Shown here one piece after another: positions 34,771 to 37,649 of a DNA stretch of 64,000 bases. Made by a program: the position numbers and the translations under genes. Location of the stretch: NCBI GenBank assembly GCA_964016885.1, contig OZ024743.1, positions 291,400,001 to 291,464,000 on the forward strand. The letters run 5' to 3'. The stretch is from Eledone cirrhosa (taxonomy: Eukaryota). Below the pieces are notes generated by a model that ran no database searches, was not told where the DNA came from, and was given only the letters and a program-made list of their open reading frames with translations. Every line of letters begins with the position of its first letter. The first letter of the stretch is position 1.

Positions 34771-36203
34771 TTATATATATTAATGGATCTATACAATCTC
34801 ATATGGTATTCAGCTGAAGACAACGTCTCTTTGTTTTTTTGTTTTGTTTTGTTTCTTTTTTCTTTTTCGTTTTACTTTAGTTTAACTTCCTAAAGTCTTG
34901 GTTTATTTAACGGATAATTTGTAAGTGATAACTCGACCATCATGTGCATTAATACGTAATTCAGTGTTAAATATATTACAGTGAACATAACGGTCGTCAT
35001 GTTCCACGAAGTTGCTTTCGAAATCTTAGAAAACTTCCGTGCACATTTTACGCAAAGGTTTATCATCTAGTCAGTCATGTACTCCATATCTATTTTCTCA
35101 GAGTGAAGTAATTGCATACTCCAGATTGCATCCCAAAGCTGCGTAAAATGTGATTACGTCTGTTCTGAATTAATAAGAATACCAAACTAAATGTACGATA
35201 GATCTTCAGGGATCCGTGTAAGTAAATTTATTTTATTTCACTCACAATGTATATTGCAGTAAAAATCATTAATATATGTGGTTATGTAGATTGCAGTATA
35301 GTAATGTACAAATCTTCTAGGAAACTGAATTCATGATAGAGTTTCGGTTGTCGCTCGTAGGGATTTCGTTTCAATTCCGTTTCTAATACCCTTGATAGGG
35401 GATTAGATAGTTATTAATACAGTTTACTAAGTCATGAAAATAGTATTCTTTAATGTTTTTCTTGGAAGTATAGAGGTGAAGATCGCTTCACAGACCATTC
35501 ATAATTAAGACATAATGTGACATATTCTTCCCGAGTCTGTTTGGCCATTCGATCCCAGTCCCAAATTTAAATTTGTTATGTAGTTCATTTATCACTTTGC
35601 ATCACACTGTATAAACGCAACCGAATTACCCAAGCCCCAGGTACAGATGCACGCAACAACAAAGTCCCTTTATATATATATATATATATATATATATATA
35701 TATATATATATATATGTGTGTGTGTGTGTGTGTGTGTGTGTGTGTGTGTGTGTGTGTGTGTGTGCGCGCGTGTGTGTGTGTGTGTGTGTGTGCGCGCGCG
35801 CGTGTGTGTGCGTGTGTGTGTGTGTGCGTGTGTGTGTTTGAGAATGTGTGTGTGTACGTATGTGTGTAAATACATATATATATATATATATATATATATA
35901 TATATATATATATATATATCATAAATCATGTCTTTAGAATCATCAGATATAAAAATATATACTATTTCTTCTTCTAATTAGCATAATTAACGATATACAA
36001 AATCAAATCTAGCAAGCTTTAAGAATAAATTTTCTTATGGGGAAATCTCTGACAAACAATCGACCGTAGCCTCTTCGCGGCAGCCCCGTTCCATTATTTA
36101 TCGAACATTTCGACAGCATGCTGACTTCGACCAAATATACCATCAACCACACACAATTAGTAGTAAAATTAAACTTAGAAGAAATGCGCACATACCGTAA
36201 TTA

Positions 36204-36280
36204 TATCCCTACCATGGTTTCTTCCTTATTTAGGACATCCAAATAATATGGATTTCCAGAGTTAGTTTCATCAGGGGATA
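36204..36280 (-). ncRNA. Type-I hammerhead ribozyme (inverted copy)
   Basis: Reverse complement of 36782-36858 with one substitution. Confidence 0.7.
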
Positions 36281-36781
36281 AACTCAAAATCAGACATTTA
36301 GTTTTTCAATCCGATCGCGCCAAATTTAGATTAAAAAATGGCTAAAAATCGCTATGTAGCTGTGTTCCAGCCAGAGAGAAAAAGTGTGATTGGTTGCTTA
36401 CGTTAATTATGCTAATTAGAAGAAGAAATAGTATATATTTTAATATCTGATGATTCTAAAGACATGATTTATGATATAATGCTCTGATTGTTTTATTTTA
36501 ATTTATTAATTCTTCATAGAGCTTAAAAGTGAACAGTTGCAACATATATATATCTTTAACTTTATGTATATGATAACCCTTATATTTAATAATCTCCCAA
36601 TTGGTTGAGATTAAATTTGGCGATATATGGCTGCGCTTTCTAGCAGCAAGCCTACCCGCCGTAAGCAACCAATCACACTCTTTCTCTCTGGCTGGAACAC
36701 AGCTACATAGCGATTTTTAGCCATTTTTTAATCTAAATTTGGCGCGATCGGATTGAAAAACTAAATGTCTGATTTTGAGTT

Positions 36782-36858
36782 TATCCCCTGATGAAACTAA
36801 TTCTGGAAATCCATATTATTTGGATGTCCTAAATAAGGAAGAAACCATGGTAGGGATA
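36782..36858 (+). ncRNA. Type-I hammerhead ribozyme with enlarged stem II domain
   Basis: TATCCC-CTGATGA-[46 nt including ATCCA..TGGAT and TCCT..AGGA hairpins]-GAAA-CCATGG-TA-GGGATA. Confidence 0.72.
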
Positions 36859-37649
36859 TAATTACGGTATGTGCGCATTTCTTCTAAGTTTAATTTTACT
36901 ACTAATTGTGTGTGGTTGATGGTATATTTGGTCGAAGTCTGCATGCTGTCGAAATGTTCGATAAATAATGGAACGGGGCTGCTGCGAAGAGGCTACGGTC
37001 GATTGTTTGTCAGAGATTTCCCCATAAGAAAATTTATTCTTAAAGCTTGCTAGATTTGATTTTGTATATCGTTAATTATGCTAATTAGAAGAAGAAATAG
37101 TATATATTTTAATATCTGATGATTCTAAAGACCTGATTTATGATATAATGGTTTGATTTTTTGATTTTAATTTATTAATTCTTCATAGAGCTTAAAAGTG
37201 AACAGTTGCAACATATATATATCTTTAATTTTATGTATATGATAACCCTTATATATATATATATATATATATATATATATATATATATATATATATATAT
37301 ATATATATATATATATATATATATATATATATATATATGTGTGTGTGTGTGTGTGTATATATATATATTTATGGGGGGAAGTGTTTCTGTCTCACCTATT
37401 GCAGGTATCGTCTATTACTTTGTATCATTTTATCTTTAAATTTTCGTCTTTAATTTTATAATTCGCCAAATGACTCAATATGTACTGTGTGTCCCTGCCT
37501 CGCTGCGTCTTGATGTGCATCGTCATTTAAATAGATAGTATTGTCATTATAATAGATAGCATCAACATTAATTCACCGAAACTAAAGTGATTTCCAGAAT
37601 GTAACTGAAGACAAAGGACCGTTGGTTGTTCTCTTTTATAACAATTAAA

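Follow-up and report, generated by a model that had tools for sequence, protein, structure and literature searches.

EN+ PLEs, among them the Hydra and Neptune clades and non-autonomous Chlamys elements such as MRC1, are described by Craig 2021 (PMC8557442) as targeting (TA)n and as bearing 5' truncations, partial tandems, an inverted 5' copy, and a tail of 30-40 bp at one end. According to the experiments set out by Frangieh 2024 (PMC11167929), the PLE tail is bounded by two internal sites of RT initiation, cleavage by the hammerhead ribozyme (HHR) is unnecessary in vitro, and the RNA-seq reads presented for the element PAc include none that begin or end at its cut. A second group of elements, the metazoan non-LTR retrozymes, consists of short non-coding units, for which circles and cleavage have been shown and for which a PLE was proposed as the driver of copying by Cervera and de la Pena 2020 (PMC7229834). 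A co-occurrence of retrozymes with PLEs, with units of 51-972 bp and pLTR homology in Xenopus, features in the preprint of Li, Clavereau, Pollet 2026 (bioRxiv 10.64898/2026.07.22.740005).

Here we describe a 669-nt repeat from Eledone cirrhosa that appears to belong to both worlds. It resembles the retrozymes of PMC7229834, as characterized there, in being a tandem unit that lacks an ORF, is low in GC (33%), and carries a single type I HHR whose 2-bp stem III is closed by a palindromic tetraloop, in having copies that range from dimers to large multimers, and in having no LTR and apparently no PBS or PPT. Its unit is longer than the 150-450 nt given there, though within the range of Li 2026, and its copies are mostly dispersed, partial, and arranged as inverted arms with two fixed ends. 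Circles and cleavage are documented for those retrozymes and are predicted for the 669-nt family; and where Li 2026 reports pLTR homology, the link to PLEs is here one of insertion anatomy and chimeras, no homologous coding PLE having been found among the families sampled. The 5' truncation, partial tandems, inverted 5' copy, one-end tail, and (TA)n targeting are those of the EN+ PLEs in the account of PMC8557442, but there is no ORF and the tail is 107 nt. As in PAc, the two RT start sites are internal and lie apart from the HHR cut; unlike PAc as reported in PMC11167929, which starts at non-homologous sites, both have 5 nt of microhomology to the target, and genomic 5' ends are found at the cut. 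Plant LTR retrozymes, with a type III HHR in two LTRs and a 4-bp TSD, differ from this family, which has a type I HHR, a redundancy that varies in length from copy to copy, and (TA)n ends. In having no protein coding, a GC content below 50%, variable 5' ends, and no LTRs, the unit conforms to what is expected of a retrozyme. We consider it very probable that this is a non-coding hammerhead repeat written into (TA)n by a borrowed PLE RT/endonuclease from an RNA that is likely self-cleaving and probably circularised. Within the open-access literature, we found no report of the 669-nt family, nor of genomic 5' ends at a PLE or retrozyme HHR cut.

Layout of the locus

The window is a stretch of 64,000 nt (GCA_964016885.1, contig OZ024743.1, positions 291,400,001-291,464,000, forward strand), and all coordinates are relative to it; unit position 1 corresponds to window position 36401. 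The locus is composed of two head-to-head, 5'-truncated arms of the unit, with (TA)n at both outer ends. From the left target tract (35874-35919), whose last five bases (35915-35919) form TA microhomology at the edge of the arm, the inverted arm runs over 35920-36402 on the minus strand; it covers unit positions 260-669 and 1-73, is tail-less, and has its 3' end at what we call site A. The two 5' ends meet with a 2-nt overlap (CG) at 36401-36402. The direct arm (36401-37249, plus strand) contains one 669-nt unit (36401-37069) and 180 nt of the next, and ends at site B, which is followed by the right target tract (37250-37338). Site A is recognized in the direct arm as the last unambiguous base, G37142 (unit 73), followed by an ATATA microhomology to (TA)n; site B is T37249 (unit 180), followed by TATAT. 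The stretch between the two, 37143-37249 on the plus strand, is a PLE-type tail of 107 nt.

These features bear out much of a preliminary description of this DNA, which had proposed an ORF-less monomer with a 669-bp period and a near-identical inverted copy, both ends lying in (TA)n. The direct repeat (36401-36588 against 37070-37257) has a period of 669 and an identity of 96%, with 6 differences at 170 scored sites; the inverted match (35915-36402 against 36660-37147) extends over 488 nt at 99% identity; (TA)n tracts flank both arms; and the longest stop-to-stop frame within the element is 72 aa. The description had also called the element young, which holds in a relative sense, as its arms differ at 6 of 483 sites (1.2%) compared with 1.9% over 43 pairs of arms in the family.

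The hammerhead ribozyme and the RNA fold

Each arm of the locus carries one type I HHR, at 36782-36858 (plus strand) and 36204-36280 (minus strand). In the direct arm, stem I is formed by TATCCC and GGGATA (36782-87 and 36853-58), the CTGATGA core lies at 36788-94, and a 46-nt stem II region (36795-36840) is followed by GAAA. Stem III is CCATGG (36845-50), which provides a 2-bp stem with a palindromic CATG loop, a type of loop that has been linked to dimer cleavage in the review PMC6765202. The GUA ends at 36852, placing the predicted cut between 36852 and 36853 (unit 452/453). The motif is thus as first described and is present in both arms, with the exception of stem II: rather than being branched, in three related families it is a single hairpin set on a basal helix, with an internal loop between them, and the basal helix is eroded in this copy and its subfamily.

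Since Rfam gives no match at the gathering threshold in the window, and since the 96-nt HHR stretch by itself has a fold no more stable than those of its shuffles (z 0.07), the ribozyme was judged by comparison. An alignment was made of 19 sequences from the 669-nt family, a sister family, and a third relative. Its core is invariant except at U7 and the base preceding the cut. Covariation in stems I and II amounts to 4 pairs and 16 cells, a level reached in 0 of 500 shuffles and far above that of slid controls, although relatedness among the sequences inflates these counts. The assignment as an HHR, a prediction, rests on the core motif and this covariation.

Downstream of the cut, a long irregular RNA rod is predicted at 36869-37105 (plus strand), and a further predicted hairpin (37113-37147, plus strand) terminates at site A. 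The rod is retained in the three families; taken together with the site A hairpin, it comprises 78 pairs, with 95.5% of cells paired and 6 pairs showing two-sided change. The cut-to-cut circle, at a GC content of 0.33, folds at -170.8 kcal/mol, against -139.7 +/- 5.2 kcal/mol for 40 shuffles (z -5.9).

The hairpin before site A also holds, at 36447-36478 (unit 47-78), a CTGATGA ... GATT ... TA series that resembles the remains of a second hammerhead core, one that would cut at site A; it is not kept in the sister families and is possibly due to chance. This genome is very rich in HHR elements: the flanks of the fetched loci happen to contain no fewer than 21 distinct HHR families, each in two or more contexts, most of them nested in (TA)n.

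Fixed 3' ends and paired arms across the genome

An exact 31-mer that spans the cut occurs 375 times genome-wide, with none for the control, and this number is a lower bound on the HHR-bearing units. Similarity searches of the 3.0-Gb genome gave 95 matches from the best 40 of 3996 candidates scored. A first set of 166 loci was mapped onto the unit, yielding 171 complete distinct arms; 9 of 180 arm records, 9-mers among them, were cut by a locus edge and left out. Because these searches rank by similarity, a second set was drawn by the exact HHR motif, from the first 100 of the 375 31-mer sites, and provided 68 arms at 46 newly fetched places.

The 3' ends of the arms are confined to two positions 107 nt apart. 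In the first set, 89 of the 171 arms end at site A and 67 at site B (156 together), with 15 elsewhere; in the second, the numbers are 42, 15, and 11. Over the first 121 loci, a TA run follows 58/61 of the ends at A and 40/49 of those at B, but none of the 12 others. The pairing of arms is equally restricted: the head-to-head pairs of the first set are 45 A+B, one A+A, and no B+B, the remainder involving interrupted arms, and those of the second are 11-12 A+B with neither A+A nor B+B. The 5' ends, by comparison, are scattered across the unit, the average run being some 300 nt. It had been suggested that the genomic copies might be circularly permuted. With the 3' ends fixed at two sites they are not, and the terminal redundancy of about 183 bp, although seen as a repeat, is therefore no property of the element but the random point at which the direct arm was truncated.

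Copies of more than one unit are also found. Dimers and arrays with at least two complete HHRs, sister family included, provided 25 cut-to-cut monomers, and larger multimers include 9-mers and one array of 28 kb. Together, the fixed ends, the A+B pairs, and the ORF-less multi-unit arms agree with the earlier proposal of a non-autonomous, PLE-mobilised, HHR-bearing multimeric element.

Relatives of the family are seen at L074:49-630, L248:2596-2973 (minus strand), and L270. The sister family is 73-77% identical, has a unit of 691-695 nt and 2783 candidates, is likewise without an ORF, and uses the same site A. It has a TA microsatellite growing inside the tail, and its cut follows GUA or GUC. 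Site A and the post-cut rod are also present in the third relative, and to judge by these shared features the three make up a putative clan of retrozymes of about 670 nt.

Other elements in the window

The window houses several further elements. At 20000-25420 there is a two-armed remnant of a coding PLE, with RT, a CX5CxxC linker, GIY-YIG, and an HHR at 25168, which is Neptune-like by motif; the family is abundant and is the commonest chimera partner of the 669-nt unit. One arm of this remnant (20430-25420) ends at its own A site and the other at its B site, 60 nt apart. The 3' part of a Hydra-type PLE (CxCX5C and GIY-YIG, with a UTR of about 1.4 kb) occupies 47143-49561, with an inverted arm and (TA)n at both ends; it has an HHR at 47239 (minus strand), a 90-nt tail, and 61049 candidates at first look. 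The end pattern of the 669-nt family is the PLE signature, and these coding PLE remnants of the window follow it too. Clade names are assigned here by motifs compared with those in PMC8557442 rather than by a tree, because Pfam scored the PLE ORFs weakly.

A second ORF-less HHR family, flanked by (TA)n and including an inverted arm, lies at 53470-54960. Its HHRs are at 54173 and 54830, its stem III loop is CTAATTAG, it has a UU cut, and at one locus (L298) it is fused head to tail with the 669-nt unit. Between 39200 and 45600, about 12 units of 511-514 bp form a tandem array with (TA)n at its start and end. Neither a motif scan nor Rfam found an HHR in its unit, and the array may be another PLE-written multimer. 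The window further contains a PLE RT fragment (62910-63773, minus strand), a LINE remnant with APE, RT, and an ORF1-like frame (1508-5301, minus strand), and a lone HHR of another family at 15839 (plus strand).

5' ends at the predicted cut

The 5' ends bring evidence on the RNA from which the copies were made. Among the 90 arms of the test that enter this region, 11 have their 5' end at unit positions 452-456, where 1.29 are expected, and no other 5-nt interval of the unit does better. This interval was settled on when some of the ends were already known; loci fetched later added ends at 453, 455, 456, and 456. Six of the 11 lie at 456, a position at which microhomology between ATATA and (TA)n could account for the join with no cleavage; other TA-like tracts of the unit have little excess of 5' ends. 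At 452-453, TA microhomology is excluded by the leading G bases, and here there are 4 ends for an expected 0.52 (P 0.002). The hazard test allows for the way in which arms were selected, and uses 134 of 157 arms, those from length-ranked queries only being excluded.

Genome-wide, 14 places have a TA-joined 5' end within 446-455, or 12 after removal of a locally duplicated locus on C28 that accounted for 2. Nine of these 12 start at 453, two at 454-455, and one at 447-449; for nine at 453, P is 0.0017 at a null weight of 0.3, two of the 12 places having already figured in the arm-based test. In the sister family, from which one row (L186/L233) was dropped on account of an alignment break, 5' ends lie +1, +2, +6, and +7 past its own cut, a count to which no formal test was applied. 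As genomic 5' ends cluster at the predicted cut, cut RNA is likely to have served as a template in vivo, even though 101 of the 157 arms continue past this point. The clustering also lends indirect support to self-cleavage of the RNA. A similar accumulation of 5' ends at sites A and B was considered and rejected, as the signal is weak (P 0.17 and 0.011) and does not recur in later loci.

Relationship to coding PLEs

A unit of this kind could be the tandem 3' UTR, or pLTR, of an autonomous PLE whose ORF has been lost by 5' truncation from nearly every copy. PLE insertions are heavily truncated here, so that few copies would extend beyond a long 3' array into an ORF; the arms examined are a part of the family; and one arm does have a PLE RT directly upstream in the sense orientation (L269/L296). 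That junction, however, is unique and falls in the middle of the ORF. Arms that continue upstream pass instead into the tail of the previous unit (65/157 in the first set and 26/57 in the second, hence 91/214, without an ORF), and arms of 2-2.7 units, as well as the 9-mers, begin in (TA)n or at the partner arm. None of the 68 arms at the 46 newly fetched places has a sense PLE ORF within 1.1 kb. The preliminary description had regarded a pLTR always found 3' of an RT ORF as a threat to its proposal, and the arms that enter the previous unit, like the 68 far from any ORF, speak against this arrangement. In the first set, 28 of 56 solo arms start in a microsatellite; a PLE RT adjoins one solo arm in the sense orientation (L269) and two others (L014, L159) in the antisense one.

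Coding PLEs provide the same answer when approached from their own side. The unit is present in the UTR of none of 59 coding-PLE loci, the sole match (L060) being a separate A+B insertion, and homology to it in 30 loci with a Hydra-type EN and 30 with an RT is limited to one nested insertion. None of the 280 HHR-like contexts in the fetched loci ties an HHR of this family's type to an ORF. The coding families sampled share no sequence with the unit, 3' end included, and none of the three whose tails were measured (60, about 88, and 90 nt) has one of 107 nt.

What links the unit to an ORF with RT and GIY-YIG is a handful of unique chimeric junctions. Six one-off chimeras join it, at six different unit positions, to four coding PLE families: three involve the Neptune-like family (at 91-93% aa identity with the window copy), and each of the other three a different Hydra-type family. 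One of them fuses a PLE RT ORF to unit position 459, 6 nt beyond the cut, and three arms with odd 3' ends run on into PLE ORFs. The chimeras are best read as template switches, in which the RNA of the unit would have met coding PLE RNA during copying, and they indicate no single driver. With so many partners and positions, and with no unit in the UTRs of the coding loci examined, it is very improbable that the unit is the pLTR of an autonomous PLE. The chimeras do not plainly obey the A+B rule: in two chimeric insertions with two arms, the ends of the unit and of the coding family pair as B+B (L291) and A+A (L292), as if the roles of the sites had been swapped, on no more than these two cases.

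Nature of the template

Dispersal by DNA-level processes, with the unit as a satellite, rolling-circle DNA, or eccDNA that bears a dead HHR and was never retrotransposed, would accord with the way in which the 28-kb array was built. This array (G000:C1:92986000-93016000) has about 43 units that are 93.8% alike and share variants hierarchically with a period of 3, which rules it out as a pure rolling-RT product and points to growth as DNA. It nevertheless begins as a B+A two-arm insertion, and hence represents the clean birth of a satellite from one arm of a two-arm retro-insertion. The dispersed copies, with their two fixed 3' ends, random 5' truncation, and A+B pairing like that of coding PLEs, the 5' ends at an RNA cleavage site, and an RNA-type conservation of pairs, many of them G-U, largely refute this explanation for the dispersal of the family, and we regard it as highly improbable. 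Because neighbouring units share variants, long arrays are at least partly DNA duplications. It is doubtful that the 9-mers, of which 5 and 4 units could be parsed and whose units are 97% identical, are pure rolling-RT products.

A closer contender keeps the same element and enzyme, and concerns the circle step only: the template would be a linear, mostly uncut multimer transcribed from a young tandem source, or the RT would jump between cut monomers. The arms that cross the cut favor such a template, as do the use of unprocessed RNA by PAc in vitro in the experiments of PMC11167929, the template switching demonstrated by the chimeras, and the homogeneous 9-mers, which are possible sources. 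The comparison of copies cuts both ways. Tandem copies within an arm differ at 329 of 14348 positions (2.3%, 49 arms) and partner arms at 235 of 12086 (1.9%, 43 pairs), against a median divergence of 6.6% between unrelated loci. Where both measures are available, at 19 loci, the divergence within arms is slightly higher (161/6671 against 148/7574 between arms), and one variant is common to both arms in one register (L010); both suit a linear template. Yet across subfamilies 6.6% apart the repeats within an insertion are as alike as partner arms, and a monomer bottleneck is therefore needed in each cycle. Of the variants private to an insertion, 8 occur in every copy whatever its register and 7 in a subset of copies, the former standing against the single same-register case. 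The 28-kb array, at its level of unit identity, is too diverse to be a source for read-through. Among variable sites covered three or four times, 118 of 126 are singletons. The near-identity of repeats within an insertion fits a circular template without proving it, and the bottleneck could reflect either a circle or jumps between cut ends. A linear template accordingly stands as a serious possibility, if not the one that we would expect.

The private variants bear no scars of A-to-I editing (A>G 18 against T>C 27, and 22 against 25). Shared alleles lean to purine transitions (86 against 55, unpolarised).

A proposed cycle and its significance

The preferred reading, of a PLE-written hammerhead repeat, can be set out as a cycle. 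A source copy with at least two HHRs would be transcribed and the RNA cut at GUA452 into unit-length molecules, which would then, on balance, be circularised. As the ends of the insertions suggest, a PLE protein would nick a (TA)n tract on both strands, and each DNA end would prime through 5 nt of TA microhomology, one at site A and the other at site B, 107 nt away. Following the pattern seen in the copies, each cDNA would stop after about 300 nt on average; of those that reach the cut, roughly one in eight would stop there, and the others would read into the previous unit. The insertion would be completed by the joining of the two 5' ends head to head, or of a single arm to the target, as observed in the loci, and an arm may later expand at the DNA level into a satellite, as the 28-kb array has done. 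On the basis of its genomic copies, we assign the element to a new family that is at once a metazoan non-LTR retrozyme and a non-autonomous PLE, for which RNA cleavage, circles, and a PLE driver are predicted.

A more ambitious reading, which we advance tentatively and consider unlikely in its entirety, is that the genomic copies record the whole retrozyme cycle. The HHR would cut, some linear monomers would be copied to their 5' end, and most would be re-ligated into circles, each copied by a pair of PLE RTs with start sites 107 nt from one another, making the element a parent-less structured parasite captured by more than one PLE clade. If this were true, the copies would amount to an in vivo fossil record of that cycle. 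The function of the HHR in EN+ PLEs is called unclear in the discussion by Craig 2021, and the genomic 5' ends found here mark the predicted cut to the nucleotide. Finally, the rule of one A and one B end, along with the chimeras with coding PLEs, gives exact start sites and candidate enzymes with which PLE-driven copying of retrozymes may be reconstituted.
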